Both the position numbers and the translations under genes were made by a program. Positions 23,885-52,433 of a stretch of 64,000 nt of DNA are shown here, in pieces. The DNA comes from Escherichia phage muut. The stretch lies in sequence record NC_052657.1; one strand, 5' to 3'. Each line of letters begins with the position of its first letter. Position 1 is the stretch's first letter. The notes under the pieces were generated by a model that did not search any database, was not told the DNA's origin, and worked only from the letters and a program-made list of their open reading frames with translations.

Positions 23885-23945
23885 CGGTACAAACAGTTTT
23901 ACTTTTCGTAAAAAACATGCTACCCTAATCTTATATACCGAGCGA
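23885..23945 (+). promoter_or_regulatory. conserved element copy A (18-mer AAAAACATGCTACCCTAA plus GAGCGAnAGCGAG)
   Basis: Near-identical to element at 52327-52433; plus orientation inside a minus-strand gene block. Confidence 0.3.
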
Positions 23946-24046
23946 TAGCGAGGTAGAGAATATTCCATGTTATACATGGAAAGAGTATATGTAATGTTAC
24001 TAACTCTATAACTAACTATATACTCTTTATACCTTACTTACTACTC

Positions 24047-24289
24047 TTATTGAAGTTCAAAGATATCCCCATCTCCATCATATCCATACTCTAACTCTCC
24101 TGTATCATATAATACAATAAAGTCTGTATCATCTTCAATAAAAGATTTAGCATAATCTACTAACTCTTCATTATCTTCATACCCTTCCAGGTACTCAATA
24201 CGACCATTGATACATTTAGCTGCAACAACTCCTGGGCCATTGCTTGGAGTCCACTCACTGTATACTCGCATACCTAATTCTTTAATCAT
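24047..24289 (-). CDS. hypothetical acidic protein (80 aa)
   Basis: ATG with GAGGAG RBS 21 nt inside ORF-track ORF. Confidence 0.45.
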   Translation of the reverse strand: MIKELGMRVYSEWTPSNGPGVVAAKCINGRIEYLEGYEDNEELVDYAKSFIEDDTDFIVLYDTGELEYGYDGDGDIFELQ

Positions 24290-24506
24290 TGTTTGTCTCC
24301 TCATAATCAATGTAGTTGTAACACTTATTCTTTAAGAAATCTTCTGCTTGTTTCTTGTGTTTTAGAATGATGCACTTCTCTTTATTCTGTTCTACATCAT
24401 TATGTAGATTGTATAAGTTAGATGCACCATACAGAATACCAATTAACAAAAGCAAAAAGATTGCTGTTGATAACAAAAATTGTTGCAACTTGTTTACAGA
24501 CTTCAT
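24282..24506 (-). CDS. small membrane-anchored protein (74 aa)
   Basis: AGGAGGG RBS; N-terminal TM; paralog of 29294..29503. Confidence 0.5.
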   Translation of the reverse strand: MKSVNKLQQFLLSTAIFLLLLIGILYGASNLYNLHNDVEQNKEKCIILKHKKQAEDFLKNKCYNYIDYEETNND

Positions 24507-24559
24507 AAACCCTCCTTATCGTTAGTACACATTGATACTAACAAGAAGTTAAGATCGTG

Positions 24560-24733
24560 TCAACATCTTTGTGTTAATTTTATCCACTGTTCACATTCTT
24601 CTTTTGTGTCGTACTCTACAGGCTTCCCTGTATCATTTCCACAACCATCTCCGAACGTAGCCCACCAGGAGAATAGAAAACAAGTTTCTCTTACTCTCCA
24701 CTTATTGGCATAGGGTACAACATAATAACTCAT
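24560..24733 (-). CDS. small protein (57 aa)
   Basis: ATGA overlap with upstream stop; below ORF-track cut-off. Confidence 0.35.
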   Translation of the reverse strand: MSYYVVPYANKWRVRETCFLFSWWATFGDGCGNDTGKPVEYDTKEECEQWIKLTQRC

Positions 24734-24981
24734 AAGATTGTGATCCTTAGCTCATTTTCTAAGGTATGTCTCACACACTCTTTGAAATTGTTATCAATAT
24801 ACACCACACGTACTCCATGAGGTGTGTCTTTACATTCAAACACATTATATACAGTATCAGATAAGACATGTTGTACGTTTACTTGTCCAATGCCATTTTT
24901 AACCACAACCATTACTTTCAGTAAACTTGTATGGTTTTTAACTTCATCTTCTACATATGCTACAACATCTTTGATATTCAT
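24730..24981 (-). CDS. hypothetical protein (83 aa)
   Basis: GGAG RBS. Confidence 0.5.
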   Translation of the reverse strand: MNIKDVVAYVEDEVKNHTSLLKVMVVVKNGIGQVNVQHVLSDTVYNVFECKDTPHGVRVVYIDNNFKECVRHTLENELRITIL

Positions 24982-25277
24982 GGTTTCTCCTGTTTAAGTA
25001 CGATATAAGATTGACGAGATTTCCATCGCCCTATCTTAACAAGGCAAATAATGCCTCTCTTTAACAGATATTTCATATCTTCGTCATAAGCTGTTTGCAA
25101 TTGCCACTTACTGTTAACAGGAAGAGAACCATGTACCCTTAAATGAGCTAACAGATACTTTCTTCGCTCCTTCCCATAAGGCAGATATTGCCATTCTTTC
25201 TTTGATACAGGTTCATGTACTTTACGATGCCAGTAAGTAAGGTGTCTTCTTTTATGTAAACCCCTATTCCTTACCAT
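24978..25277 (-). CDS. hypothetical basic protein (99 aa)
   Basis: GGAGG RBS. Confidence 0.5.
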   Translation of the reverse strand: MVRNRGLHKRRHLTYWHRKVHEPVSKKEWQYLPYGKERRKYLLAHLRVHGSLPVNSKWQLQTAYDEDMKYLLKRGIICLVKIGRWKSRQSYIVLKQEKP

Positions 25278-25516
25278 TATACCTCTACCTCCGTTACCCC
25301 AGGATCTCTAGTCCAGGTATAGTAGAGCATACCATCTTCTTTCAGTGCAATGCGATCACTTTCGTCTCGAAGATATAGGTCACATACTACGCGCAGTTGC
25401 GGATCTGATCCGAGTAGTTCTGAAACAATAAGGTCATCACCGCTCATACGAGCAACAATCACTGCATATTGACCAGTATCTGCATCAAAAATTGGTTGTC
25501 CGATGTTTAATTGCAT
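25277..25516 (-). CDS. hypothetical protein (79 aa)
   Basis: AAGGAG RBS. Confidence 0.5.
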   Translation of the reverse strand: MQLNIGQPIFDADTGQYAVIVARMSGDDLIVSELLGSDPQLRVVCDLYLRDESDRIALKEDGMLYYTWTRDPGVTEVEV

Positions 25517-25701
25517 TGTGTTGTCTCCTTATTCAGTACGTTGTTTTGTGCTGCGCACCAGCACTCATAAAAACCTTGGGTTAATGGCATAGTGTAGTTT
25601 CCAGAAGGATCTCTTTCGAGATCCCCATCTGCATAACAACCACTACCTAAGAACCATTTTTCAAAATCGGATAAATCATCCCAATCTACACTATTTTTCA
25701 T
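25507..25701 (-). CDS. hypothetical protein (64 aa)
   Basis: ATG 1 nt after upstream stop; the 5' part of the ORF-track ORF overlaps the upstream gene. Confidence 0.4.
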   Translation of the reverse strand: MKNSVDWDDLSDFEKWFLGSGCYADGDLERDPSGNYTMPLTQGFYECWCAAQNNVLNKETTQCN

Positions 25702-25702
25702 A

Positions 25703-26161
25703 TTATACTGTCTTATACCCGACAATAGCAACCTGATTCGTAGGCTTCCAACGACCAATAATCTCACCAGAAATCTCTGTGCTACCATTTATGTATTGGT
25801 AATGGGTATCATCATGATTAACCCACGCCATAACGTCAAGAGTAGGGGTTTTGACGTGTACCAGTAGTGTAGCCCATTCTGGGGCTTCTTTAATATCCAC
25901 AGAATCTTGCCAATCTTCTTCGATGTGCCAAGTAGGTTCACCATCAACATCTGTAACGAAGAAACGAGCTTTCATACGTTTAAAGAACATTGGTGTATAC
26001 CCATGATCGCACTCTGGGATAAAATCATCCATCGTCTCGTCATAGGTGAAATATTGTCCATCTTTGTAATGAAAAGATGCACAAAATAGTTCATTACGAG
26101 CAGGAACATGCCATACAGCTACAAAACTACGACCATGTGGATAATGTTTAACCTCTTTCAT
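25703..26161 (-). CDS. hypothetical protein (152 aa)
   Basis: ORF. Confidence 0.5.
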   Translation of the reverse strand: MKEVKHYPHGRSFVAVWHVPARNELFCASFHYKDGQYFTYDETMDDFIPECDHGYTPMFFKRMKARFFVTDVDGEPTWHIEEDWQDSVDIKEAPEWATLLVHVKTPTLDVMAWVNHDDTHYQYINGSTEISGEIIGRWKPTNQVAIVGYKTV

Positions 26162-26176
26162 AGTTTTCTCCTTATT

Positions 26177-26521
26177 TTATTCAAAAGAATCAATTCGATT
26201 TTGTTCTATGTCAATTGCAGCATCTAAGATAAGTTTTAATGCTTCGAATTGCAAGTCTTCCTCTAAAGAGAAGACATATAAAACAACAGATTCCAAGTAA
26301 GACAGCACCCCAAGACTAAGAGTTGCAATTTCTACTCCTGCATCGGAGAAGCCTGTTTGCAAAATTTCTTTGAAGAAACGTTGTTTATCAACAATAGCAG
26401 ATAAAATAAGCGTTTTACGCTCGTCTGCTGATCGTACTGTGCAGTATATGTTGCTAAAAGAATCTAACCACATTTTGATCATACCTTGTCGGTACATAAG
26501 GATTTCAATATCAGCCAACAT
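26177..26521 (-). CDS. hypothetical protein (114 aa)
   Basis: ATG with GGAGAA RBS 1 nt after upstream stop. Confidence 0.45.
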   Translation of the reverse strand: MLADIEILMYRQGMIKMWLDSFSNIYCTVRSADERKTLILSAIVDKQRFFKEILQTGFSDAGVEIATLSLGVLSYLESVVLYVFSLEEDLQFEALKLILDAAIDIEQNRIDSFE

Positions 26522-26522
26522 A

Positions 26523-26690
26523 TTATTTCTCCTCTGGAGAAAGGTTTGCATTAACTTGATAGTAAAAATCAAAATCCTTGTGTTGATCGCACCATTCTTG
26601 AGCTTCTTTAAATGACGCAAATTGCATAGTGAATGTTGCCATCCACGTGTTCATACTTTTATTGAACTTGTCGATAAAAAATGTTTGCAT
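26523..26690 (-). CDS. hypothetical protein (55 aa)
   Basis: ATG with GGGAGGA RBS overlapping upstream stop. Confidence 0.45.
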   Translation of the reverse strand: MQTFFIDKFNKSMNTWMATFTMQFASFKEAQEWCDQHKDFDFYYQVNANLSPEEK

Positions 26691-26908
26691 TATTCCTCCC
26701 ATTTTATCCAAAGGCAGTATTCTGGAACATAAACCTCCTTCCCTTTGTTATTTACAAAGGTGTACTCCACAAATTCTGCTTTATATGTTTTGTTATATTC
26801 CTGTGCTGCTGGCACAGGACATTTTGTAATGCGCGTTTCAGTCCAACGGCGGTGTATAACCGCCTTGTTCTTTGGATCAAACGGATGTATAAAGTGTGTT
26901 TTACTCAT
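26690..26908 (-). CDS. hypothetical protein (72 aa)
   Basis: ATG overlapping end of upstream gene. Confidence 0.4.
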   Translation of the reverse strand: MSKTHFIHPFDPKNKAVIHRRWTETRITKCPVPAAQEYNKTYKAEFVEYTFVNNKGKEVYVPEYCLWIKWEE

Positions 26909-27305
26909 GCGCCATTTCCACAAGATTTTTAATCATAGTTTCTCGACAGAGATTCCACATATCTGAAGCAACCATAGAAGCATATTCATCGGGGTTGGAT
27001 TCTGGTAAAACCTCTTTAACTGCTTCTGGCGTTGGGCTGCACATAGCAGGTAGTGCTTTAAGTGCATCTTCAATAGAGAGCTTCTTACCTTCACTGTAAA
27101 TAACTTCGTAAGCATAGTCATTTACATCTTCTGGAATATCTTGATCCAGGTAACGCACAGTCGAGTTATGCATTTTGTTCATAGCTTCACTAACACCAGC
27201 GCCACAAAGCTGTGCAACTTCTTTAGAGATACAGTCACAAATAACAACTTCGTAAGGCTTTCCACCATAATACTGCGCATTATATTTGATTTTAACAGAC
27301 CACAT
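26901..27305 (-). CDS. hypothetical protein (134 aa)
   Basis: AAGGAGAG RBS. Confidence 0.5.
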   Translation of the reverse strand: MWSVKIKYNAQYYGGKPYEVVICDCISKEVAQLCGAGVSEAMNKMHNSTVRYLDQDIPEDVNDYAYEVIYSEGKKLSIEDALKALPAMCSPTPEAVKEVLPESNPDEYASMVASDMWNLCRETMIKNLVEMAHE

Positions 27306-27315
27306 ATTACTCTCC

Positions 27316-28002
27316 TTATTTAACGTGTTTTAGCAATTCAATGTTAGCAGAATAATTTTCACCACAATTGGTAACGCTCAACAGTGACCATTTACAAGAG
27401 AATACACCTTTTAGATGATCTGGAACACACATTAGCGGAACATAAACTGTTTCTGAATCTTGTGTTTGCTCTGTTTTGTTAACATTGCAACAAAATGGCA
27501 ATACATCATCATGAATCATTTTACATTCACTCAAATTATCTAACATATGTGAAACTTGTTCTGAAGTTTCAAACATTTGTGCTTCACAAGCCAGCGCACC
27601 AACCACTTGATAAGCCTCTCCACACAAATCTTCTAGCTCTAAGATACGTTCAGACATAGCTTCAATGATGGCTGATCGTGCTTTCACCTTAGTTTCTGCT
27701 TCTTTAATTTTCTTCTCAAGTTCTGCAATGTACTTCAGTAGTGCACTAACAACATCTGGAGTATTTTCTTGATCATCTTGGGAAATTTTTACCAAAGAAG
27801 AAGCTGCTTTGCAGCGCACTTTAGGCTCTACGTAGCCAAAAGTCATATTTTCCGAAGAAGATTGTTGTGAAAACCAGTGTTTGTTCGAAGAAAACACAGG
27901 TTCATCTTCAAACCAGAACACATCTCCAGTGATATCACGAGCCATGAAATTTGCATTGTCTGGAACTTCGTAACGATGCCCTTCAAACATAATCTCTTTC
28001 AT
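27316..28002 (-). CDS. hypothetical protein (228 aa)
   Basis: GGAGGA RBS. Confidence 0.5.
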   Translation of the reverse strand: MKEIMFEGHRYEVPDNANFMARDITGDVFWFEDEPVFSSNKHWFSQQSSSENMTFGYVEPKVRCKAASSLVKISQDDQENTPDVVSALLKYIAELEKKIKEAETKVKARSAIIEAMSERILELEDLCGEAYQVVGALACEAQMFETSEQVSHMLDNLSECKMIHDDVLPFCCNVNKTEQTQDSETVYVPLMCVPDHLKGVFSCKWSLLSVTNCGENYSANIELLKHVK

Positions 28003-28586
28003 TACACATCCTCCATTTGGAACATCTCTTTGTGGTTAGAATAGATCTGTTTGAAAATCTTGTCAAGGCGTTCATATGATTCTTTATGCTCTTGTTTCCA
28101 TCCGTGATTTCGGATTTTATCTGCCAGATCATAAACCTCGCATAAAACTTTGGCAAAGTTGGTATTACCTATAGCACAAGCCTCAAAACCTTGAACTAAA
28201 CCCTCTACATCATACCACGTATAGTCAGAGTCACTAGGAGGATTCCCTGCATCGGCTAAACGTTGCCTCACCCATTCGATACGTTTTTCATTTAAATGGC
28301 ACTTACCTTCTCTACACTCTTGTTCTAATTCTTCTTTAGATTCGTTGAATGGGTGAAGGACAGGAAGTTCTGCTTTTTGCAATTGCTCCAGGTATTCACC
28401 TACAATGCGCATAGCTTCACTGTGTGTACACTTTCTGCCTGTGTGCCAATAACGGAAGATACTTTCTGTTAAACAGATGTTTTTACTAAACATCGCATTG
28501 TCTTTAACATTCGATCTATTAACCCAGTCTAAGTAATATACATAAAACTGCAATAATTCATAACTGCTTGGTATAATTTTACTCAT
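28002..28586 (-). CDS. hypothetical protein, paralog family A (194 aa)
   Basis: AAGGAGAGG RBS; shares LLQFY..W, LHPFN, ERV.WV.DRI with 29496..29864 and 31647..32021. Confidence 0.5.
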   Translation of the reverse strand: MSKIIPSSYELLQFYVYYLDWVNRSNVKDNAMFSKNICLTESIFRYWHTGRKCTHSEAMRIVGEYLEQLQKAELPVLHPFNESKEELEQECREGKCHLNEKRIEWVRQRLADAGNPPSDSDYTWYDVEGLVQGFEACAIGNTNFAKVLCEVYDLADKIRNHGWKQEHKESYERLDKIFKQIYSNHKEMFQMEDV

Positions 28587-28595
28587 AACCTCTCC

Positions 28596-28763
28596 TTAAT
28601 TGTGAAAAATGTTATCAATCAATATGACTAATAATACAAGGATAGAAGGGAGTAGGAACAGAAATCTTAACATTATGTGATGCGTGTGAGAAGCGGCTTT
28701 AGCGCCAGCCGCCAATAAGCCTACTAATCCTACAATAAAGAGCAGTTGTTCAGGGACACCCAT
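28596..28763 (-). CDS. small membrane protein (55 aa)
   Basis: ATG 1 nt after upstream stop; two hydrophobic stretches. Confidence 0.35.
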   Translation of the reverse strand: MGVPEQLLFIVGLVGLLAAGAKAASHTHHIMLRFLFLLPSILVLLVILIDNIFHN

Positions 28764-28764
28764 A

Positions 28765-28989
28765 TTATGGAACACTTGGATACTCCGTAAGTTCGGCTAA
28801 TAGTTGGATATGTGGACACGTGAATTGTTGTCCTGGATAGCGTGAGCTAATATCATCCAGTAAAGCAATCACAGCATTGTGCAATGCTTCGTAATCCTCA
28901 TAATACACCATCTCTCCATTAGGATCTTCAACAATATCACAGTGACAAGCGTGAGCAGTACACGCATCCCATTCCAGACGTTTTACCAT
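28765..28989 (-). CDS. hypothetical protein with CxxC pairs (74 aa)
   Basis: AGGAGGG RBS; paralog of 23358..23621. Confidence 0.5.
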   Translation of the reverse strand: MVKRLEWDACTAHACHCDIVEDPNGEMVYYEDYEALHNAVIALLDDISSRYPGQQFTCPHIQLLAELTEYPSVP

Positions 28990-29035
28990 AAACCCTCCTA
29001 TTTATATATCAAGAAACACAAAAGAATAACATCTA

Positions 29036-29284
29036 TCACCAAACCGTTACTACTCCGGTACGTAGCGTCTCTTCATGTCCCCAAATATCCGCTTCAATTG
29101 TAATTACAACCCACTCCGTGTTCCACTGAATACCAGTGATCTCTGTGAGATGTGCAGCTTCACGTTGTAGTGAGGCTGTGTCTGTAAGAGACGCACGTAA
29201 AGCATCCAATTCTTGTTCAATTTTGGTACGTTCTTCTTCGGTAATCGGTGTACCAACACGATCAAAGGTAAAAATATCTAACAT
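29036..29284 (-). CDS. hypothetical protein (82 aa)
   Basis: AGGAGGG RBS. Confidence 0.5.
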   Translation of the reverse strand: MLDIFTFDRVGTPITEEERTKIEQELDALRASLTDTASLQREAAHLTEITGIQWNTEWVVITIEADIWGHEETLRTGVVTVW

Positions 29285-29293
29285 ACTTCCCTC

Positions 29294-29503
29294 CTAATTA
29301 TAATTCACATAGCGCCCACAATCCTGTTCAAGAAATTTTTCAGCATCCCTTTGGTGCTTTAACACGATGCACTGTTCTTTTTTAGCTTCACTTTCACGAG
29401 CTTCTCTTGCCATATACTCACCTAAACGAATGATACTAGAGAATAACACGTATGCAAGAATAAGACAAACAGTGATTGCACAGAAAGTTTTAAACTTAAC
29501 CAT
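29294..29503 (-). CDS. small membrane-anchored protein (69 aa)
   Basis: ATG with GGAGGA RBS; paralog of 24282..24506. Confidence 0.45.
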   Translation of the reverse strand: MVKFKTFCAITVCLILAYVLFSSIIRLGEYMAREARESEAKKEQCIVLKHQRDAEKFLEQDCGRYVNYN

Positions 29504-29864: not shown

Positions 29865-29873
29865 GACTTCTCC

Positions 29874-30382: not shown

Positions 30383-30385
30383 ATA

Positions 30386-31257: not shown

Positions 31258-31258
31258 G

Positions 31259-32369: not shown

Positions 32370-32400
32370 TGAGAATAATTATCATTTGCATTATCATTCA
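32370..32400. repeat. Fur-box-like palindrome
   Basis: GAGAATAATTATCATTTGC, 14/19 to GATAATGATAATCATTATC. Confidence 0.35.
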
Positions 32401-32554
32401 ATGACTTATAAGACTTTTGATTATTTTCTGAGCAAGAAAGGTACTACTCACAACAAAACAGATAAATTCTAAGTAAATCAATGGCTTGGCAAGTCTAAAC
32501 ATCTATATACACCTTGCCAAATGAAATGATCTGGCGTGAAATAGTGCTACCCGT

Positions 32555-32580
32555 GGAAGATAGCTGATAATGATTATCAT
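32555..32580. repeat. Fur-box-like palindrome
   Basis: GATAATGATTATCATTTGC, 16/19 to Fur consensus. Confidence 0.45.
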
Positions 32581-33107
32581 TTGCATATTTTCTATACTAT
32601 AAAACGCACTAAAAATCAAGATAATTCTGATTTATTGCGCTTTTAAGAAAGTAGGCTCAACAAATAGGCTATAACTATGCTCAACAAATAACAATAATAG
32701 TATGAAAAATCATTTATTCAGATATAAATAATTTTGCGCAATAGTAGTAATATTTTTCTTGACAAGAAAGATTTCTTTGTGTTCACATAGCGCCCCCTGG
32801 AAGGTGGCGCATTATGATCATCAATGTCATTATTCACCATGTTTATTATTGCATAGCTTATTATTTAGCTTATATTATAGCCAATGTTCTAAACACTAGC
32901 TAATAATAACGCACCGCAACAATGTAAGGGATACAATATACCATGTATATTGTTGCGCTTGCAATTGTTGCAAGCTACATAAGCACAAATAATAACTATC
33001 GGTGATGGTTATTATGTGGGGTGTGTAGTTGCGTTATTATTAGCCGCCTATGTGTCCGGCATAGGCTGCTAATGATACGCTTGCGAATTATATTTCTTGT
33101 TATAGTT

Positions 33108-33175
33108 ATTGTATGAAATGATTACCACATGAAATGGTTACTGTATGCAATGATTACTGTATGAAATGATTAGTT
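33108..33175. repeat. four tandem ~16-bp direct repeats (iteron-like)
   Basis: GTATGAAATGATTAC / CATGAAATGGTTAC / GTATGCAATGATTAC / GTATGAAATGATTAG. Confidence 0.55.
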
Positions 33176-33189
33176 AGGTAATAAATAGG

Positions 33190-33470
33190 AAGGTAAAGGT
33201 TAGATCATAAATAGATAGGATATGAATTATTTAGTAATGTTACTAACGATTTAATAGTTACTTTGTGCAATAATTCGATAGATTATAGTTATAGTTTTAA
33301 AGGTTAGATAGATTATATTTAGCTTAGTAATGATTTATATTAGTTATTGTTGTTTAATATAAGGTTATCAATGAGATAGTAACAGTAAGTTATAAATAAA
33401 GGTTAGATAATTAGTTTTAATTTAGTTAGATAACTTATTATTTTATAGGTTAGATGGTCATAAGTTAAGA
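33190..33470. repeat. dispersed AAAGGTTAGAT repeats (4-5 copies)
   Basis: Copies near 33196, 33297, 33408, 33434, 33446 in AT-rich context. Confidence 0.45.
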
Positions 33471-33545
33471 ATGATTATCATTATTGCATTATGCAGCTTA
33501 TTGCATAAATAATCAGCTATAAATAAGAATGATTATCATTTAAGA
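33465..33545. repeat. two Fur-box-like palindromes
   Basis: AGAATGATTATCATTATTG and AAATAAGAATGATTATCAT; second is near-identical to 43383-43405. Confidence 0.45.
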
Positions 33546-42173: not shown

Positions 42174-42435
42174 GTTCGTTCGCCTCTTCTGTTAGTAGTT
42201 TACATACCTTAAACATGCTTGCCGCATCTTTTGACGGTAGCCAGCCTATCCGATACACTCCAGGATCTGGATTAGTTATATCAGTTAGTTGCGCGTTGCG
42301 ATGATTAAAAATAGTGTAACCGCCGCCAGCACGGGGATAAACATTATCTTTAAACCTGATAGCGTATCTCGCCAGGTCGAACGTTGTAGCATGTTCAAAA
42401 GCGATCACATTATCAAAAACTTTTAGAAAAAACAA
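42163..42435 (-). CDS. hypothetical protein (90 aa)
   Basis: TTG start with GGGGAGG RBS. Confidence 0.45.
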   Translation of the reverse strand: MFFLKVFDNVIAFEHATTFDLARYAIRFKDNVYPRAGGGYTIFNHRNAQLTDITNPDPGVYRIGWLPSKDAASMFKVCKLLTEEANEHGA

Positions 42436-42437
42436 GA

Positions 42438-42584
42438 TTATCCTCCCCAGCGTTTAAAGCCCGTTGCACGGTTGTTTTTTAGCTCTCGTTTTAGTCTCTT
42501 GCAACGGTTTACAAGTGCAAACCGTGCCGGAGTCGTAACAGTAGCGCCGTTTTTGGTGTGAATACTCATTACATATTGTTTCAT
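42438..42584 (-). CDS. small basic protein (48 aa)
   Basis: ATG after hairpin; stop overlaps RBS of next gene. Confidence 0.4.
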   Translation of the reverse strand: MKQYVMSIHTKNGATVTTPARFALVNRCKRLKRELKNNRATGFKRWGG

Positions 42585-42604
42585 AAAGTTTTATCCTATG
42601 TAAG

Positions 42605-42656
42605 CGGGAACTATTCCCGCTTTAAGATAGCTTATCAGGTTTTAGTGCAACGTCAA
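42605..42656 (-). promoter_or_regulatory. promoter plus stem-loop cassette
   Basis: TTGACG-16-TAAGCT then GCGGGAATAGTTCCCGC. Confidence 0.5.
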
Positions 42657-42690
42657 CCGTTTTTTTAATCTTTTTTCATTTCTTTTTTGC

Positions 42691-42744
42691 TTGCTATCTA
42701 TAAAGGAAACGGCTATTATCTTTCTACCGCGCCAACCAGGGCGC
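42691..42744 (+). promoter_or_regulatory. divergent promoter plus stem-loop (plus strand)
   Basis: TTGCTA-17-TATTAT then GCGCC-AACCAG-GGCGC hairpin. Confidence 0.45.
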
Positions 42745-42766
42745 ACATCAAAGAAAGGGCGATACC

Positions 42767-43033
42767 ATGACAAATACCCCTTTACATCTCATGCACTCAT
42801 TGGGCTGGCAAGGCGGCACGGTGCACCAGGTAGCAAGCGCAACGGGCTTAAAGGTTGAAACCGTTCTCAACCTGGGCGATCATAAGGTGGAAGAAATAGA
42901 TCATTTTGATACGTTCGCAAATGGTTATCTATGGGCTTGCAGTGGCGGCGGGGAAAGCAAGATCCCGCCAGGGGCGCGGGGCGACATGTATTTTTGGTTA
43001 GGTGTCCTATCCTGGCAAGAAAACAAAAAATAA
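42767..43033 (+). CDS. hypothetical protein (88 aa)
   Basis: AAGGG RBS; lone plus-strand gene between minus blocks. Confidence 0.5.
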   Translation: MTNTPLHLMHSLGWQGGTVHQVASATGLKVETVLNLGDHKVEEIDHFDTFANGYLWACSGGGESKIPPGARGDMYFWLGVLSWQENKK

Positions 43034-43035
43034 TC

Positions 43036-43064
43036 TTGACAAGCCCAGGGATCGGGCTTATACT
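43036..43064 (+). promoter_or_regulatory. sigma70-like promoter
   Basis: TTGACA-17-TATACT. Confidence 0.5.
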
Positions 43065-43070
43065 GTTTTA

Positions 43071-43170
43071 CATACAGAAGAGGAAGCGCCACCCCCACGG
43101 CGTAAAGGCGGGGCTAACATACCAGGGCACTACTGGTTGGAAGGTTGATCGCCGGTAGCTCGTCTAAAAT
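43071..43170 (+). ncRNA. candidate small structured RNA
   Basis: GC-rich hairpin-rich ~100 nt after the promoter, with no ORF and no RBS. Confidence 0.25.
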
Positions 43171-43314
43171 AAATTTGTAAAGAAATGTAAAGATAAAAAT
43201 AATCGCTTGCTTTTGTTGTTGGTTATGCTATTCTTATTGTATGGCGAGGGGATACGGGAGCGCGAGACAAACACCACCCCTGCGCGTTATTCTCTAAATG
43301 AGAAAATTCTTATT

Positions 43315-43405
43315 TGGTAATGATTCTCATTCTCTTACTGAGAATGATTATCACTTACATAATTAAATGATAATGATTCTCATTTACAAATGAGAATGAT
43401 TATCA
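43315..43405. repeat. cluster of four Fur-box-like palindromes
   Basis: TAATGATTCTCATT, GAGAATGATTATCAC, GATAATGATTCTCAT, GAGAATGATTATCAT. Confidence 0.45.
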
Positions 43406-43430
43406 TCCGCACACCCATAAAAACACGAAA

Positions 43431-43631
43431 TTGAACTTTTCATTTTTGATTTTTCTACGGAAAAAGGCAAAAAAACTTTAAATAAACTGGGGAATTTTTA
43501 AAAAATTGAAGTTTTCATTTTCAAAATCTGGACAGAAATACATACAAAAACTTTAAATAATTTTGACCAAACTTGAACTTTTCATTTTCAAAATTTGTAG
43601 CCAAAAATCTGTAAAAACTTTAAATAATTTT
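43431..43631. repeat. three tandem ~62-67 bp direct repeats
   Basis: Each unit: TTGAA(C/G)TTTTCATTTT(C/T)(A/G)A(A/T)(A/T)T ... AAAAACTTTAAATAA. Confidence 0.55.
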
Positions 43632-43845
43632 ATCCTTTTTATAAAAATGATTTTACTGTTCTGTTATAAATAGTAGTTAAGAGATAATGTGTCTTTTAAA
43701 AGCCAGATAGCATAGTCCAACAAACAAATTAAATAATTTATTAACAGAGTACAGAATAATATTTACTCTGGATATATTATTCAGAGGGTGGATTTCCGTA
43801 CATGAAACCCACACCCCTTTTATAAAAATAAAAATTTTCAAAATA

Positions 43846-45588: not shown

Positions 45589-45626
45589 CTACTACTCCTC
45601 TTATTAAATCTGGCATTAATGCAAGA

Positions 45627-45652
45627 AAACCCGCCGAAGCGGGTTTTTATTT
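45627..45652. terminator. rho-independent terminator (bidirectional)
   Basis: AAACCCGC-CGAA-GCGGGTTT flanked by T-runs. Confidence 0.55.
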
Positions 45653-45662
45653 GCTGGCTTAC

Positions 45663-46790: not shown

Positions 46791-46801
46791 TTTAACCCCT
46801 T

Positions 46802-47239
46802 TTATTTTTGTTGAGATGAACGAATTAAATCAGCAGCAAATTCAATCAGATACACTTTTGGTGCAATAATGATTTTTAGCCAATCAAAATTCGAAAAGAA
46901 AATAACAAATCCTAAAAAGAAAAAGAAAGCACAGACAACAAGACCAACAATAGGTAAAGCAGATACTTCACCATAGCGATCTCGTGACCACAGGCATTCT
47001 TTATCTTTAATTGCTTTTACGAGGTTCCGTACAGCAATAAAAGTAATAAACATAAAGCAAATACTAAAAAGTTGCCATAAACCTGCGGATACTGCTTTCC
47101 ACACTAATAATTGATGAATTACTTCTGGAATTTGTTGTTTTCCAAACTCTACAACATCACTCATTGTTTGAATAGTGACGTTAACCATGTTCAGAAGTAC
47201 ATCAGTTGCTTTATCTGCGATTGCGTTTGTTTTACTCAT
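46802..47239 (-). CDS. membrane protein (145 aa)
   Basis: GAGGA RBS; several hydrophobic segments. Confidence 0.5.
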   Translation of the reverse strand: MSKTNAIADKATDVLLNMVNVTIQTMSDVVEFGKQQIPEVIHQLLVWKAVSAGLWQLFSICFMFITFIAVRNLVKAIKDKECLWSRDRYGEVSALPIVGLVVCAFFFFLGFVIFFSNFDWLKIIIAPKVYLIEFAADLIRSSQQK

Positions 47240-47253
47240 TCTTTATTCCTCAC

Positions 47254-47427
47254 TTACCTTTTAAGGAAACCAATCATAATGAAGAACCACATCCAGGCAG
47301 GAGAGATAATAAAGCCAAAGAAACCGCAAATAACCGCTTTCTTAATCTCTTCCAGACAACCCACCAGGAAAAGAACGAGTGAGACTACAATCCAGATAGC
47401 CATAAATACTGTAACAAAGAAACTCAT
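47254..47427 (-). CDS. small membrane protein (57 aa)
   Basis: GGAGAAAGG RBS; two hydrophobic segments; plus-strand ORF here looks spurious. Confidence 0.45.
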   Translation of the reverse strand: MSFFVTVFMAIWIVVSLVLFLVGCLEEIKKAVICGFFGFIISPAWMWFFIMIGFLKR

Positions 47428-47447
47428 ACCTTTCTCCCATCTGTATT

Positions 47448-47699
47448 TTAAAATTCAACCACTACTTTATCGAGATGCTCTGCTTCAACTTGATCTAAGG
47501 TTAACACCTCAACTAAACCTTTGTCAATACCTAATTTAATAACATCAACATATTGTCCAAACAGATCCTGAATAGATATCTTGTGTTCGACAACAACCAC
47601 CACTTCATTTCCTTTTGTGAATTCTCTCCATACACGTCCACATTTGAAAATAAAGTCTGCTTCGTCTTCTGTTATCATTTTAGGTTTGATACTTAACAT
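47448..47699 (-). CDS. hypothetical protein (83 aa)
   Basis: ORF. Confidence 0.45.
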   Translation of the reverse strand: MLSIKPKMITEDEADFIFKCGRVWREFTKGNEVVVVVEHKISIQDLFGQYVDVIKLGIDKGLVEVLTLDQVEAEHLDKVVVEF

Positions 47700-48250
47700 T
47701 ATAAAACTCCGTACTCCGGCTCAAAATCATATTTTTCACAAATCATATCCCAGCGTTCGTTGCCGAAGCTGCGACCACAAATTGCATCGTAAGCGTAATG
47801 CTCTGCTAACCATTTTACAACAGTGTCTACATCGTTATCAAGTGGTAATCTGAATTCTTTGCCATATCGCATACGAAGAACAAATTCATCCCCTTCTTCA
47901 AACAAGTGCATATGGCTTTTTGCATAAGAAGCCAGGTTGAAAAAAGATACCTCTTCCCAGCATTCTTTTTCCACTGCAATCCCGTGATCAACAACTAAAG
48001 CACCGATAACGCGATACATAATAGGGCTAAACAGTGCGCTTGGGCTAGGCTGCTCTTCAACTATAGACCAACCTGTTCCCTGCCAAATTTCATTTTTGAA
48101 CCATTGTTGCATGTCATTCCCTTTTTCATCTACAATGGATCGGTTACGCATTTCAAACCATTCTCCTTCGCAAAAGTATTTATGTTTAACGCGCTTGCCT
48201 TTTAACATTGCTTCTTTGGCTTCTATCCAAGTCAGATCGGTGTTTTGCAT
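47699..48250 (-). CDS. hypothetical protein (183 aa)
   Basis: ATG with GAGAGGAG RBS 60 nt inside ORF-track ORF. Confidence 0.5.
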   Translation of the reverse strand: MQNTDLTWIEAKEAMLKGKRVKHKYFCEGEWFEMRNRSIVDEKGNDMQQWFKNEIWQGTGWSIVEEQPSPSALFSPIMYRVIGALVVDHGIAVEKECWEEVSFFNLASYAKSHMHLFEEGDEFVLRMRYGKEFRLPLDNDVDTVVKWLAEHYAYDAICGRSFGNERWDMICEKYDFEPEYGVL

Positions 48251-48369
48251 TCGTTTATCTCCTCTCATTTGTGTATGCATTAAGATTAGCACAATAAAAC
48301 AGTATGTCAATACTTGATCTGAAATTAATTTCTGGTACTCTGTGTGTATCGTAACAAAAGAGGTTAGAT

Positions 48370-48660
48370 ATGAACATCACACTAGCAACTAAGAATATTA
48401 CAGAAACTTTTGATGGTTTTGGCATTATTATTGCTGTTCATGGGCATAACGAAAAATGGTTAGCCTCTTTTGAAGAGGACAAAGAACGCAATGTACGTTT
48501 GAATGCACCAATCAAAGTTTTACACCAGGTAGGTGAGAATAAGAAACAATGGAGATCATACAAAGAGTGGAACATTACGAACGAGTTAATACACAAACTT
48601 GACAAAGTGATAAACATGTTCGACAATGCACCAAGCAGTGCAAAACGTGTTTTACTATAA
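48370..48660 (+). CDS. hypothetical protein (96 aa)
   Basis: AAGAGG RBS. Confidence 0.5.
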   Translation: MNITLATKNITETFDGFGIIIAVHGHNEKWLASFEEDKERNVRLNAPIKVLHQVGENKKQWRSYKEWNITNELIHKLDKVINMFDNAPSSAKRVLL

Positions 48661-48671
48661 AGGAGAGTGAT

Positions 48672-49025
48672 ATGAAAATTGTACACGATGAAATTCAATT
48701 TGAAGAGAGTGATCTTCTTGATCTAGATGTGACACTAAGTAAACTGATCTACAATGCACTTTCTGCATATCGTGCAAAAGTGATAGCCACAAACAATGTT
48801 AAAATTCCTAGTGGGTTACTTCGTCGGATGTACCCACACACTAAAGGTGACTATCTACCTTATATGGAAGAACGAGCAGCAGAACACTGGTTAGAAATTC
48901 TTGAAAAAATGGAGTCTTCTTTTAAGGACTCAACTCCACCAGAAGAAGTTAATGAAAAACAGCGGCAAGATCGTTTAGAAGGTCGTATTTTGTTTGCTAA
49001 GTATTTCCATAATCTGTGGATGTAA
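48672..49025 (+). CDS. hypothetical protein (117 aa)
   Basis: AAGGAGAG RBS. Confidence 0.5.
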   Translation: MKIVHDEIQFEESDLLDLDVTLSKLIYNALSAYRAKVIATNNVKIPSGLLRRMYPHTKGDYLPYMEERAAEHWLEILEKMESSFKDSTPPEEVNEKQRQDRLEGRILFAKYFHNLWM

Positions 49026-49038
49026 TAAGGAGAAAACT

Positions 49039-49206
49039 ATGAGCGAAACCAAGAAACCAATTCCGCGCACTTACCTACACGTTGACCCTGAAATCTTCAA
49101 GGTTTTATTTGCTGAAGCCAAGAAAAGGCAAATTATGGTCAGTGATTTGATGTTAGAAATCATTACTGAAGCAGCAGAGAACATCAAACAAAAAAAGGGT
49201 AAGTGA
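49039..49206 (+). CDS. ribbon-helix-helix-like small DNA-binding protein (55 aa)
   Basis: ATG with AAGGAG RBS; beta-strand then two helices pattern (TYLHVDPEIFKVLFAEAKKRQIMVSDLMLEIITEA). Confidence 0.4.
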   Translation: MSETKKPIPRTYLHVDPEIFKVLFAEAKKRQIMVSDLMLEIITEAAENIKQKKGK

Positions 49207-49257
49207 TCCTCATTCACTTTAGTAGCGCATTAAGCGTGATTTATAAGGAGATTTTTA

Positions 49258-50256
49258 ATGATTAAACATACAAAACCTTTTTTAGGAATAGATTATGACT
49301 TACTAGCAATCACTTCCCTGGTGATTAACGGCAAAACAAAAGAAGTAAAACTACACCATAAGATCATTTATTCTTATTTGTTAAGTTTATCTGGCACATA
49401 CCAAAAGGTAACACCATCTTTGAAAGGTATTGGTGAGCGGTTAGGAGTAGGTACAGATCAGACGGTACGCCGTCATATCAAAGATCTTGTTTCTTTTGGA
49501 TGGTTGAAGATTGAGGAAAGGGCAGGTAGCACAAATGCTTATATTGTCCTTCCTTATGAACAAGAAGCCCAGACACAACAAGAAGCTACTGTTAAAGCTG
49601 TTCCTGATCAGCTTCCCCCTACAGAATGGAAAATGTTTAAAAAATGGTATTCACCATCTGGTAATGAATACACCGCTACACTGCCAGCCGTTGAAATCTA
49701 TAGCTATATAGCTGGATTCAATGAACAAGGGCAAGAATGTTACGCTACTCAAAAAACATTAGCTAATATTGGAATGGTTAGTGATCGTCAGGTACGCAAT
49801 ATTATAAATATGTTTGTTGATATGGGAGTTCTTTCTGTAGAGACACGCCACGGTCAAACATCACTCTATAAAGCATTACCCTTTACAGAGATGAATGTTA
49901 AAAAGCAAAAAAGAGTAAAAGAAATTCCGTACACCGAAAACCAACAATCAAATTGGTGTTTTTATATACAAAAATTGGTTTCTCCGTTTTATACCTGCTT
50001 GAAAGCAGGGATTACGGTAGATATTGATCGTAGAATCAAAGAGCAAAGTAAAAACAGCATGTTTAAGCATTATCTACTTGACAGTTTCAGTGGAGATTAT
50101 GCTACTATTTTCGCTTTGGAGAAAGAAGTTAAAAAATGTTTTAACCGCTCTTTATGCTTAAAAGAGTGGCTACCGGATGGATATACAGAAACATATAATC
50201 TAGAAGATTATGAAAATATAAAAAATTTTGTTAGTGAAAAATTGATTAAGGAGTAA
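49258..50256 (+). CDS. winged-HTH protein with C-terminal T5orf172/GIY-YIG-like domain
   Basis: Two wHTH-like segments; C-terminal LKAGITVDIDRR...DGYTE. Confidence 0.4.
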   Translation: MIKHTKPFLGIDYDLLAITSLVINGKTKEVKLHHKIIYSYLLSLSGTYQKVTPSLKGIGERLGVGTDQTVRRHIKDLVSFGWLKIEERAGSTNAYIVLPYEQEAQTQQEATVKAVPDQLPPTEWKMFKKWYSPSGNEYTATLPAVEIYSYIAGFNEQGQECYATQKTLANIGMVSDRQVRNIINMFVDMGVLSVETRHGQTSLYKALPFTEMNVKKQKRVKEIPYTENQQSNWCFYIQKLVSPFYTCLKAGITVDIDRRIKEQSKNSMFKHYLLDSFSGDYATIFALEKEVKKCFNRSLCLKEWLPDGYTETYNLEDYENIKNFVSEKLIKE

Positions 50257-50258
50257 AC

Positions 50259-50408
50259 ATGGTTATCTACAAAAATAAGTTCACTGGCTGTCTGCGTAAA
50301 TTTATTGACAAAAAAGGGTATGTTTCTGTTGACAATGGTGTTACGTGGGTACAAAATGGCACTTCAGAACAACTGATCAAGGCTTTACCTTACTATGAGG
50401 AGGTTTAA
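50259..50408 (+). CDS. small protein (49 aa)
   Basis: ATG 2 nt after upstream stop; fills gap to next gene exactly. Confidence 0.4.
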   Translation: MVIYKNKFTGCLRKFIDKKGYVSVDNGVTWVQNGTSEQLIKALPYYEEV

Positions 50409-50732
50409 ATGTCCAACAATCTGTTTAGCGTGTCAATTGCACCGCGTGTTAATATTCGCTGTCAGTTTGTTAACTTACCAGGTGTGACACATATCACTTT
50501 AGAGTATGATCCTCGTTCACAAGAGAACCCAATTACAGGCAAGATTGATTCAGCCTACGGCGACTTTCTGATGGATCACCAAGCAATCTTATGTTGTGTG
50601 CAACGCTTACAAGCAGGGTCTTTATACATCTTCAAGAAATCTGTGTTCCAGGAGATTGCTCAAGCGGTTGAGAGTGGTATGGAAACACTTAACAACATGA
50701 TCGAAGCCGCTAACAAAAAGGAGGTTTTATGA
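50409..50732 (+). CDS. hypothetical protein (107 aa)
   Basis: GAGGAGG RBS. Confidence 0.5.
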   Translation: MSNNLFSVSIAPRVNIRCQFVNLPGVTHITLEYDPRSQENPITGKIDSAYGDFLMDHQAILCCVQRLQAGSLYIFKKSVFQEIAQAVESGMETLNNMIEAANKKEVL

Positions 50733-50986
50733 CACTTTATCATGTAACTACCGAAGGTGATTGCGAAGGTCGTACCACAAAAGATTTAGGGTATGTCGAA
50801 GCAGATTCGCCTGAACATGCAATTAAGTATCTGCACTCTATTGGTAAGTATGCTTATTATGAATATTATATCCATGAAATTGAGGAAAATCCTATACAAG
50901 TAGCAACACCTATGGTAGAGTTGGAACATCTTAAAGCAAAAGTTAAAACTGGCAGCACATCTGGATTTAAGGGGGTAGTACAATGA
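50729..50986 (+). CDS. hypothetical protein (85 aa)
   Basis: AAGGAGG RBS. Confidence 0.5.
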   Translation: MTLYHVTTEGDCEGRTTKDLGYVEADSPEHAIKYLHSIGKYAYYEYYIHEIEENPIQVATPMVELEHLKAKVKTGSTSGFKGVVQ

Positions 50987-51252
50987 AAATTCGTGATAAT
51001 ATTGCAGACTACATTGTAACTTGTGAAGATGGTACAGACGTTTTGCTTCCGCAACCAATTGTTTGGGAGGATGGTGAAATGTACCGTATAGCTACGGAAC
51101 ATTATAAAGGTATTGACATTAAAGCTCTTTGTGCTATGCTTGTCGAAGATCAAGAATCTGATCTCTCAGTTGTAACATATCAAGATGTGTATGAAATCTG
51201 TGAAACTTTACTACAAATGCATGAAGATGGACAAGAGGTGTTTCCAAAATGA
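50983..51252 (+). CDS. hypothetical protein (89 aa)
   Basis: ATGA overlap. Confidence 0.5.
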   Translation: MKIRDNIADYIVTCEDGTDVLLPQPIVWEDGEMYRIATEHYKGIDIKALCAMLVEDQESDLSVVTYQDVYEICETLLQMHEDGQEVFPK

Positions 51253-51449
51253 CAGAATGGGTAAAAGTAGAAGACCCATACGATATCCCACTAGGTGAGT
51301 ATGTGGTGGTAATGGAAGATGGTGGAAAAGGGTATTGTGAAGTGCATAAAAGTATGTCTGGTAAGATTATTGTGGTGAACCATCATTTTCACTTTGATTA
51401 CCCTCCTATTGTGGCATATATGCCTTTACCTAAATATGAAGGGGATTAA
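51249..51449 (+). CDS. hypothetical protein (66 aa)
   Basis: ATGA overlap. Confidence 0.5.
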   Translation: MTEWVKVEDPYDIPLGEYVVVMEDGGKGYCEVHKSMSGKIIVVNHHFHFDYPPIVAYMPLPKYEGD

Positions 51450-51596
51450 ATGTTATTCTTTAGACTTAATATTGCTTTTTGTTTGTTTGCAAACATTGCA
51501 TTCTGGGTATTGGGTAGTGTAAAATTAGGCTACTTCTTTATTGTACTACAAGCTATTTGTTTAGCTGGTCAAATAATCACTAAGGGGCGAGTATGA
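51450..51596 (+). CDS. small membrane protein (48 aa)
   Basis: ATG directly after upstream stop; hydrophobic; stop overlaps next ATG. Confidence 0.4.
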   Translation: MLFFRLNIAFCLFANIAFWVLGSVKLGYFFIVLQAICLAGQIITKGRV

Positions 51597-52021
51597 CACA
51601 ACAAATCCAAGATAAATTTAATGAACTCTATCCAGCAAGCGAAAGCGGCACTCATAACGTGCGTAAATCGCTCTATAACGTCTTTAAAGCAGGATGGGAG
51701 GCTTGCCTTCAGGCTCAAGAAAAACCAGTGTCAGGGACGCGTAACGGCTTTTATATCCCGATTGTTGAAAGTGAGGAAGGATGGGGTAGCAAACATGATG
51801 GTTATATGGTAGGATTCACCATAGAAGATCTTGAAGAACGCCGTAAAGTCTTTGAGGCAGCTAATACAGAAAAGTATGGCTACTATTATGAACGACCTGT
51901 TCGTTACATTCCTGTTGTGCTTAGTCCTAAAGCTGTTGAAACAATGTCTGCAACAGAAAAAGAAAGGACTCGCCATTGTGTATGGTTTGATGATATTGAC
52001 GATTTTCGATTTGGAGAATAA
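51593..52021 (+). CDS. hypothetical protein (142 aa)
   Basis: AAGGGG RBS. Confidence 0.5.
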   Translation: MTQQIQDKFNELYPASESGTHNVRKSLYNVFKAGWEACLQAQEKPVSGTRNGFYIPIVESEEGWGSKHDGYMVGFTIEDLEERRKVFEAANTEKYGYYYERPVRYIPVVLSPKAVETMSATEKERTRHCVWFDDIDDFRFGE

Positions 52022-52024
52022 TTT

Positions 52025-52297
52025 ATGAAAAATAAACACCCTTACTATCAACTATTGCATGTACTGCGCCGATTGCGCAATAAGCAGATTGAAGATTTCC
52101 GTCACTTCAAGCGTGATCGTGTGAATCGTCAATGGATGGATCATCGTTTCTTCTCTTTAACTGTACGTAAGTTCCGTGAAGAGATTAAGAAGACAGACCA
52201 GGTAATTGCAGGTGCTAAACGTGCAATCTCTATGTCAAAAATCACAGGTGTAAATCATATGTACGACTTCAAAACAGATTCTGTTGTACCTATGTAA
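52025..52297 (+). CDS. hypothetical basic protein (90 aa)
   Basis: GGAG RBS. Confidence 0.5.
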   Translation: MKNKHPYYQLLHVLRRLRNKQIEDFRHFKRDRVNRQWMDHRFFSLTVRKFREEIKKTDQVIAGAKRAISMSKITGVNHMYDFKTDSVVPM

Positions 52298-52326
52298 AAG
52301 TATTTTGTAAAGTTTTGTGGAGAGTA

Positions 52327-52433
52327 TTGACTTTTTCAGAAAAACATGCTACCCTAAACCTGAAAGGTGACGAGCGAAGCGAGTTAGTATTCTCTATAGA
52401 TATTGTTCCTGTCACTCATGGAGGGGCAGGAAC
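52327..52433 (+). promoter_or_regulatory. conserved element copy B: promoter-like box plus stem-loop
   Basis: TTGACT-17-TACCCT inside the shared 18-mer AAAAACATGCTACCCTAA, GAGCGAAGCGAG box, GTTCCTG...CAGGAAC hairpin. Confidence 0.4.

Follow-up and report, generated by a model that had tools for sequence, protein, structure and literature searches.

The Repeated Element and Its Surroundings

A short DNA element is found twice in a stretch of 64,000 nucleotides (nt) from the genome of Escherichia phage muut (NC_052657.1), in the following called the window. The window belongs to a phi92-like phage (Justusliebigvirus, Stephanstirmvirinae), and 54 phage records match it at 95-99.9%. Relative to the phi92 record it is reverse-complemented, and it crosses the junction of the ends of that record; its minus-strand block at approximately 20-48 kb is a long early region of small genes. 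Copy A of the element lies within a 207-bp gap (23840-24046) between two minus-strand open reading frames (ORFs), 23621-23839 (gp024 of phi92) and 24047-24310 (gp023); this gap is without annotation in the phi92 record. Copy B is found 79 nt upstream of a plus-strand ORF (52462-52728). Both settings agree with those described in a first-pass annotation of the window. The sequence points to the element being a regulatory cassette of phi92-like phages (Stephanstirmvirinae), in which the apparent promoter and a mini-hairpin are conserved together.

The 18-mer AAAAACATGCTACCCTAA has two exact occurrences in the window, at 23911-23928 and 52340-52357, both on the plus strand, and shuffled sequences give a chance expectation of 0.07 matches. 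It is followed by GAGCGATAGCGAG at 23940-23952, 11 nt past the 18-mer of copy A, and by GAGCGAAGCGAG at 52372-52383, 14 nt past that of copy B. For the pattern GAGCGA(T)AGCGAG at those distances the chance expectation is 0.00. The first-pass annotation had reported a ~60-nt element in two plus-strand copies, with this pattern 11-14 nt after the 18-mer. The repeat, its strand and the spacing stand, but copy A had been placed ~20 nt too low (at about 23891), and the shared unit is longer. When the downstream hairpins are included, it extends over approximately 23898-24035 in copy A and 52327-52461 in copy B.

A sequence profile made from 17 homologous cassettes of different lineages was scanned over the window. 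The two sites scored 60.5 and 55.7 bits (E 7e-18 and 2e-16) and the rest of the window scored at most 7.1 bits, so that exactly two copies are present there. For the genome family the number is different, since a third syntenic copy lies outside the window. The cassette is unannotated in every record inspected and matches no curated RNA family. A search of the window for known RNA families and tRNAs gave none at the gathering thresholds, and noise alone at relaxed thresholds on both copies.

Synteny and Conservation

The third copy, copy C, is located at phi92 47901-47966, ~40 kb away in phi92, and its hairpin has the loop GCA. It is found at a divergent junction ahead of gp107 and gp108, which encode nicotinamide adenine dinucleotide (NAD) salvage proteins (phosphoribosyl pyrophosphate synthetase and nicotinamide phosphoribosyltransferase). 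Past copy C there is ~200 nt of non-coding, A+T-rich, palindromic DNA and then a promoter, TTGACT-17-TAGAGT, which abuts the gene (phi92 to 48178).

At least five Stephanstirmvirinae lineages (phi92-like, ESCO13-like, Klebsiella, Citrobacter Tr1, and metagenomic) carry the three types, A, B, and C, in synteny. A-type copies are flanked on both sides by opposite-strand genes in every lineage checked, B-type copies are found ~80-170 nt ahead of a homologue of the 88-aa gene, and C-type copies occupy a divergent junction. Both window copies are kept in all 54 close relatives. Over its 131 nt copy B is at least 99% identical in 54 of 54 relatives, and 100% in 22 of the 24 matches listed, while the surrounding 2 kb are 95-99% identical. 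In comparisons with other genera, no other DNA of the 3-kb neighbourhood aligns as well as the cassette (85-87% over 75-80 nt, vs. at most 73% for the flanking genes), and copy A is the best-conserved DNA of its neighbourhood. The first-pass annotation had made its case depend on further copies and on comparison with relatives. Both were found, and the element is conserved far beyond the two copies by which it was recognized.

Five records labelled 'Campylobacter phage' also match the cassette. The three listed (A150, A110a, and C3; host Campylobacter jejuni) are 100% identical over 126-131 nt, and four of these records also reach an identity of 95-99% across 2 kb. The hosts assigned in such records seem doubtful.

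The cassette occurs outside phages as well. In an enterobacterial integrative island, found in a metagenome-assembled genome of Scandinavium and in metagenomic contigs, an A-type promoter with hairpins 1 and 2 (see below) directly follows the integrase gene. The hairpin 1 region of the island is 93% identical over 42 nt to the C copy of a Klebsiella phage, and after the cassette there is a non-coding stretch of 0.9-1.4 kb and then a canonical promoter. The island encodes the integrase, an endonuclease VII, a DUF5906 protein, which we take to be of the primase/helicase type, a resolvase, and an Eco29kI restriction-modification system. No protein is common to the island and the phage sequences compared, and searches of E. 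coli genomes and of the phage collection gave no match to the island. When its 0.9-kb non-coding region was compared with the phage leaders, no significant homology was seen past the cassette and hairpin 2. Since the A-type unit is kept in the island in a different setting, it appears to be self-contained and not merely antisense to one phage gene. The island is possibly a satellite or a defence island linked to these phages.

The Predicted Promoter Part of the Cassette

The order of the cassette is a -35 hexamer, a spacer of 17-18 nt, TG plus one base plus TACCCTA, a variable stretch of 11-16 nt, CGAGCG, 1-2 nt, and AGCGAG. The TT and the A of the -35 hexamer, TG, TACCCTA, CGAGCG, and AGCGAG are invariant in the 17 aligned cassettes, where the base between TG and TACCCT is mostly C. 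The -35 hexamer is TTGACT in most copies. Most A-type copies have TTTACT, as seen in phi92-like, Klebsiella, and metagenomic lineages, while the A-type hexamers of ESCO13 and Tr1 read TTGACT and TTGATT. Compared with TTGACA, the TTGACT of copy B matches at five of six positions and the TTTACT of copy A at four. Copies A and B have spacers of 17 nt and the TG at -15/-14; in all remaining copies the spacer measures 17-18 nt. TACCCT fits TAnnnT, with the A at position 2 and the T at position 6 retained. With these features, the element is laid out like an extended -10 promoter of the sigma-70 type. The seventh nucleotide past the -10 hexamer is a purine after a pyrimidine in 20 of the 23 distinct spacers; this, together with the geometry of sigma-70 promoters, places the predicted transcription starts at 23933 and 52362 (Table 1).

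The motif TTGACT-17-TACCCT, which the first-pass annotation reported for copy B, is thus present (52327-52355). The term promoter-like holds for this anatomy, but the element is more than a promoter: its most invariant part is a predicted transcribed mini-hairpin, and further hairpins follow.

Short inverted repeats are found around the predicted start, both in the window (52356-52370) and in the homologous spacers (ACCTGAAAGGT, AACCnnAAGGTT, CCCCGAAGGG, CACGAAGTG, AAACATATGTTT). Each of them alone is marginal (p 0.01-0.25).

Table 1. Positions in the window of the predicted parts of copies A and B.
Feature	Position	Strand	Basis
Copy A -35 hexamer, TTTACT	23898..23903	+	17 nt before TACCCT
Copy A extended -10, TGcTACCCT	23918..23926	+	TG, TACCCT, and the next A invariant in 17 cassettes
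Copy A predicted transcription start, A	23933	+	Seventh nt past the -10 hexamer; sigma-70 geometry
Copy A hairpin 1, outer stem TATAC/GTAGA around C-GA-GC-GATA-GC-GA-G (core 23939-23952)	23934..23958	+	Minimum-free-energy fold
Copy A hairpin 2, TTCCATG-ttata-CATGGAA	23963..23981	+	Pattern and compensatory change
Copy A hairpin 3, AAGAGTATAT ... ATATACTCTT, 10-bp stem (23981-23990 with 24018-24027)	23981..24027	+	Minimum-free-energy fold
Copy B -35 hexamer, TTGACT	52327..52332	+	
Copy B extended -10, TGcTACCCT	52347..52355	+	
Copy B predicted transcription start, G	52362	+	As for copy A
Copy B hairpin 1, TGA / C-GA-GC-GAA-GC-GA-G / TTA (core 52371-52383)	52368..52386	+	Fold
Copy B leader segment, TATTCTCTATAG	52388..52399	+	Predicted pairing with the ribosome-binding region
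Copy B hairpin 2, GTTCCTG...CAGGAAC	52405..52433	+	Enclosed by the leader/Shine-Dalgarno pairing in the fold

The Invariant Mini-Hairpin

Hairpin 1 consists of the pairs C-G, G.A, A.G, G-C, and C-G, which close a loop with G as its first and A as its last base in every copy. In the copies compared the loop sequences are GAA, GCA, GATA, GGGA, GTAA, and GAAA, and the corresponding cores include GCGATAGC (copy A), GCGAAGC (copy B), GCGCAGC, GCGGGAGC, GCGTAAGC, and GCGAAAGC. The spacing between the two AGCG blocks varies between 1 and 2 nt. The hairpin is present in the minimum-free-energy fold, and the folded regions have z = -3.7 and -3.8. In copy A the fold contains a 2x2 G.A internal loop. The hairpin is also part of the consensus structure; here one pair is G.U in six of seven sequences, and a C-G to A-U swap is seen in three of 11. 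The outer stem begins at the predicted +1/+2 in A-type copies.

The hairpin forms on the plus strand only, as the G.A and G.U/G.T pairs, among them the G.T wobble in the outer stem of copy B, become mismatches on the opposite strand. Its place is thus either in the transcript or on the non-template strand of the DNA. Several of the metagenomic searches required the core sequence. Copies derived from BLAST or from a promoter-only pattern, i.e., from searches with no hairpin requirement, are unaffected by this and have the same core.

Two known structures resemble the hairpin. All six loop variants conform to the GCGNAGC/GCGNNAGC consensus of the mini-hairpin DNAs described by Hirao. The published ones act in single-stranded DNA, while the cassette hairpin is located at a transcribed start and could equally be RNA, and its tandem G.A pairs and closing C-G pair are outside the published motif. 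The consensus of the Rfam family GA-cis (RF02987) holds CC-GA-GC-GAAA-GC-GA-GG with a 2x2 G.A internal loop. However, the best-scoring cassette, copy C of phi92, reached only 16.6 bits, where the gathering threshold is 34.7; no match was obtained for copies A and B or for two further cassettes, and outside this hairpin the model has no relation to the cassette.

Unrelated G+C-rich or repeat-like metagenomic elements also contain the 13-mer CGAGCGAAGCGAG between complementary flanks, which suggests that the G.A-flanked GCGAAGC hairpin is a generic structural module that is reused in many contexts. Generalizing from unrelated contigs was given up: matches to the loose search patterns were about as many as expected by chance, estimated from the database size and the pattern length, and they are not used as evidence here.

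The invariance of the -10 region is not explained by promoter function alone, and it might reflect a protein that binds double-stranded DNA, either a repressor at TGCTACCCTAA or at AGCG-N-AGCG, or the machinery of a recombination or integration site common to the phages and the island. Extra TACCCT/AGGGTA repeats downstream in the ESCO-like copy B, and the position of the cassette next to the integrase gene of the island, would fit this. A duplex site is still highly improbable, as the 1-2 nt spacing of the AGCG blocks and the G-to-A loops fit a folded strand, the -35 and -10 hexamers keep the exact sigma-70 spacing, and no DNA-binding domain is found in the proteins neighbouring copy A.

Copy A and Its Putative Small RNA

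No ORF is found downstream of copy A; instead, three hairpins follow within ~100 nt. Hairpin 2 displays one compensatory change (U-A to C-G), and its pattern TTYCATG-N5-CATGRAA is found at 14 of 190 loci, always adjoining a cassette and including the island. Hairpin 3 is followed by a pyrimidine-rich tail reaching ~24040, which ends just short of the gp023 stop codon, and in one metagenomic lineage direct reading shows it as AGAGGTATA...TATACCTCT with a paired G/C insertion. We infer that hairpin 3 forms the 3' end of a copy A RNA.

Since these hairpins follow it and the A-type outer stem begins at +1/+2, copy A looks like a compact structured unit of ~100 nt, and it most likely makes a small non-coding RNA. 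The antisense orientation noticed in the first-pass annotation is kept in every lineage examined; what has changed is that copy A resembles a self-contained non-coding unit and not the start of a long antisense transcript. A promoter scan and direct reading gave no convincing minus-strand sigma-70 promoter for gp024 within the gap.

Two other roles for copy A were considered and rejected. A leader peptide is contradicted by the short ORFs (ATG-TTA...) that follow it, since on direct reading these have 3-27 codons, differ between lineages, and have no ribosome-binding sites. Copy A as a regulator of the B and C leaders by base pairing in trans was discarded because the RNAduplex energies were no better than those of shuffled sequences in four lineages (p 0.05-0.53). 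There is a perfect complementarity between UAGAGAAUA, past hairpin 1 of copy A (23954-23962), and UAUUCUCUA in the leader of copy B (52388-52396), which is the arm that masks the Shine-Dalgarno region. The other lineages do not conserve this 9-nt match, and it does not exceed what shuffled sequences give.

The lambda oop RNA and the 6S leader of pR' are short structured RNAs made from sigma-70 promoters, the former antisense to a neighbouring gene and the latter ahead of a regulated operon. The cassette has no sequence or structural similarity to these and no U-run terminator. Unlike the lambda 6S system it has, to our knowledge, no known partner such as Q.

Promoter-Plus-Hairpin Units in the Early Region

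Between 34527 and 41615 of the window, the minus strand carries at least 12 strong sigma-70 promoters of the form TTGACA-17-TAnAAT, each ~8 nt before a G+C-rich hairpin of shared sequence (e.g., GGCGGGAAATGGTTTCCCGCC). Composite units of this kind are known from T4-type phages, where the promoter early stem-loops (PeSLs) are numerous, flank variable genes, and have been described as terminator/promoter composites. The cassette resembles the PeSLs in being a short promoter-plus-hairpin unit that is repeated in a phage genome and is able to move between contexts. It differs from them in having three fixed syntenic copies and a hairpin of invariant sequence, and the early-region class, with its 12 or more copies, is the closer analogue of the PeSLs.

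As this phage commonly combines a promoter with a 5' hairpin, and since PeSLs show that promoter/stem-loop cassettes can be mobilized by recombination, the cassettes might be ordinary promoters with a generic stabilizing 5' hairpin. Copy A would then be stranded or weak by chance, or it might serve as a head-on roadblock combined with a bidirectional terminator between gp001-023 and gp024-036; on the minus strand, a T-rich run comes after its hairpin 2, which a scan marked as terminator-like. A generic stabilizer would, however, not need an invariant 13-nt core and an unusual invariant -10 region across three paralogues and at least five lineages. Copy A is also the most conserved DNA of its neighbourhood and keeps its orientation, and the A-type unit is kept in the island, where there is no early operon to insulate. 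This explanation is therefore considered very unlikely.

Copy B and the Comparison with ops Elements

Copy B is followed by an operon that runs on to a UvrD-like helicase and NrdD. The helicase ORF (plus strand, 55062-57875, 937 aa) contains an intein, with Intein_splicing/Hint matches at residues ~267-613. In the minimum-free-energy fold the leader segment given in Table 1 pairs with 52445-52458, the Shine-Dalgarno region (z = -3.8 vs. shuffles). On this model copy B is the head of a DNA-metabolism operon, with a leader that can hide the ribosome-binding site of the first gene. No U-run is found past hairpin 2 of copy B in the window, and this hairpin thus does not qualify as an intrinsic terminator or attenuator. 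B copies of the Klebsiella type have a homologous second hairpin with TTTTCTTTT after it, a terminator-like arrangement ahead of the gene.

A hairpin of this kind in a leader brings to mind the operon polarity suppressor (ops) elements. The published non-template ops hairpins are GCGGTAGC for RfaH of E. coli, YGCGNAGCR for UpxY of Bacteroides, and CTGCGAAGCATA for the PSE ops. Like these, the cassette has a GCG-N(1-2)-AGC hairpin on the non-template strand of a leader, and the GCGAAGC of copy B is identical to the PSE ops heptamer of B. fragilis. The hairpin might accordingly act as non-template DNA ~20 nt into the unit, where it would be read by a NusG/RfaH-type factor or a phage analogue, leading to resistance to pausing or termination. 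Every cassette core fits the published hairpins, a site in the leader just past the promoter is the defining context of ops, and the stem bases are invariant while the loops vary, as in the system of Bacteroides paralogues. The terminator-like hairpin between cassette and gene in the Klebsiella-type B copies points in the same direction.

There are also clear differences. The cassette hairpin is found ~8-25 nt from the predicted start, it is part of a longer block (CGAGCG..AGCGAG, 13-14 nt invariant vs. the ~8-9 nt of an ops hairpin), and it does not follow the RfaH consensus. The 12-nt consensus GGCGGTAGnnTG has no zero-mismatch occurrence in the window, and AGCGATAGCGAG of copy A has three mismatches at the 10 specified positions, including G5, which is among the bases that RfaH reads. 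A phmmer search of the 317 window ORFs with RfaH and NusG query sequences entered by hand gave nothing better than E = 0.39. Three different loops per genome would need one tolerant factor or three factors, and copy A has no downstream genes that could gain from antitermination. Taken together, an ops-like recruitment site is unlikely. The same degree of belief is given to a broader version, a phage-borne counterpart of ops. Here a non-template DNA or nascent RNA mini-hairpin would be read by a putative factor, which would either reprogram the polymerase of the host or pass the opened DNA on to the replisome. As a site without genes, copy A would act in loading or as a decoy, and the satellite-like island would have acquired its cassette by copying, so as to sense or exploit this factor during infection.

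A Possible Role in Replication

Ops-like sites share with replication origins that the hairpin would work at the level of DNA. Such readings gain from the loops, which fit the consensus of DNA mini-hairpins, from the inverted repeats, which pass upstream of +1, and from the position of the A, C, and island copies ahead of non-coding A+T-rich DNA. Mini-hairpins of the type GCGNAGC/GCGNNAGC have been reported at the priming sites of phages G4, St-1, and alpha3, and related ones at RSF1010 ssiA and at the early promoters of N4. The minimal T4 origins oriF and oriG consist of a promoter and an A+T-rich unwinding element; T4 has several of them, and oriF is at the same time the promoter of uvsY.

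The cassette could thus be imagined as a transcription-activated origin or a priming site, where the displaced plus strand forms a mini-hairpin resistant to nucleases and to single-stranded DNA-binding protein, and where the transcript or a primase primes synthesis as at oriF/oriG or at G4-type signals. Its core matches the hairpins of the G4-type sites. Like the T4 origins, it is a promoter-based, non-coding module present in several copies per genome, one of which doubles as a gene promoter while others are gene-less, and the copies have either orientation relative to the genes. Copies A and C precede non-coding A+T-rich palindromic DNA, and the island has its 0.9-1.4 kb of non-coding DNA ahead of the DUF5906 gene.

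However, the A+T tract, which is found at the Klebsiella A copy and at copy C, is weak in window copy A, where the downstream DNA is only moderately A+T-rich, and it is absent at copy B. The GC skew tracks gene orientation and has no inflection at copy A. The promoters of the T4 origins depend on MotA, and these origins have no conserved hairpin and need none. In addition, hairpins 1 and 2 behave like a compact transcript with a stem from +1. A function in replication is for these reasons regarded as quite unlikely.

Proposed Mode of Action

The explanation that we favour, with somewhat better than even confidence, is that the cassettes are sigma-70 transcription units with a common 5' hairpin tag that is read by one conserved partner, with a regulated leader at copy B and an orphan small RNA from copy A. 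A host sigma-70 extended -10 promoter, TTGACt-17-TGcTACCCT, would start a transcript ~7 nt past the -10 hexamer, and this transcript would fold at once into the invariant mini-hairpin C-GA-GC-[G(N1-2)A]-GC-GA-G. The hairpin would be a common tag on three transcripts, recognized co-transcriptionally by one partner, which might be a protein or the RNA polymerase itself. In this way the three units would come under shared control after initiation, in whichever direction this acts. Copy B would serve as promoter and leader of the DNA-metabolism operon, with a ribosome-binding site that may be masked, or with a terminator-like hairpin instead in the Klebsiella relatives. Copy A would be an orphan unit giving a ~100-nt structured non-coding RNA with three hairpins, which happens to be antisense in the gp023-gp024 spacer of the early operon. 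Rather than by long antisense transcription, such an RNA would most likely act through its own structure, which might for example bind the common partner or titrate it.

This explanation is favoured because promoter and hairpin are conserved together at a fixed short distance, because the A-type stem starts at +1 and the downstream hairpins covary, and because the phage uses the design of a promoter with a 5' hairpin, whose sequence differs there, at least 12 times in its early region. A coding role for copies A and C can be set aside, since no ORF follows copy A, and ~200 nt of non-coding DNA and a second promoter follow copy C.

Several observations weigh against a transcribed tag. On the side of the promoter, the -10 hexamer TACCCT is weak, with three of six positions of TATAAT, and a promoter scan with a 9-of-12 rule listed neither window site, the TACCCT sites being below this rule. 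No published RNA sequencing or start-site mapping for Stephanstirmvirinae was found in a literature search. On the side of the RNA, covariation is limited, the outer stem being down to one pair in several B and C copies. The core never varies and is thus uninformative on covariation, and its invariance in the metagenomic set is partly circular, since the searches demanded it. Loops such as GAA, GCA, and GATA fit the consensus of DNA mini-hairpins better than the GNRA rule for RNA. The start-centred inverted repeats of the B and C spacers extend upstream of +1 and, as their 5' arm is located there, they could form in DNA only and not in RNA. No obvious plus-strand intrinsic terminator is found at copy A or copy B in the window. 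As to the partner, no candidate was found: there is no NusG/RfaH-like ORF among the window ORFs, and ten proteins beside copy A gave no domain matches.

Other Features of the Window

Two further stretches of the window stand out by their low coding content. The region 32370-33535, ~1.2 kb with no ORF of at least 50 aa, is found near the positions to which the genome ends of phi92 and its terminal repeat of 343 bp map, and the physical termini are probably located there. The second stretch, 42435-43677, is an ORF-poor part of the minus-strand early block and has a plus-strand promoter, TTGACA-17-TATACT, at 43036-43064. It may be another opposite-strand unit.

Implications

Promoter-plus-hairpin cassettes, orphan small RNAs of phages, and mini-hairpins are all already known as kinds, while the cassette of the phi92-like coliphages is itself undescribed so far. 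Phi92-like and phAPEC8-like phages are widely isolated for therapy, and their regulation is essentially unannotated. The cassette would define a regulon of three units, i.e., an orphan non-coding RNA, a DNA-metabolism operon, and the NAD-salvage genes, and its 13-nt core is a precise handle for finding the reader of the cassette. If the hairpin only stabilizes the 5' end, the result is a useful but ordinary annotation. If it proves to be ops-like or to act in priming, a mechanism of bacterial and plasmid operons would extend to a lytic phage. The copy in the integrative island further hints at crosstalk between a family of virulent phages and a chromosomal mobile element.

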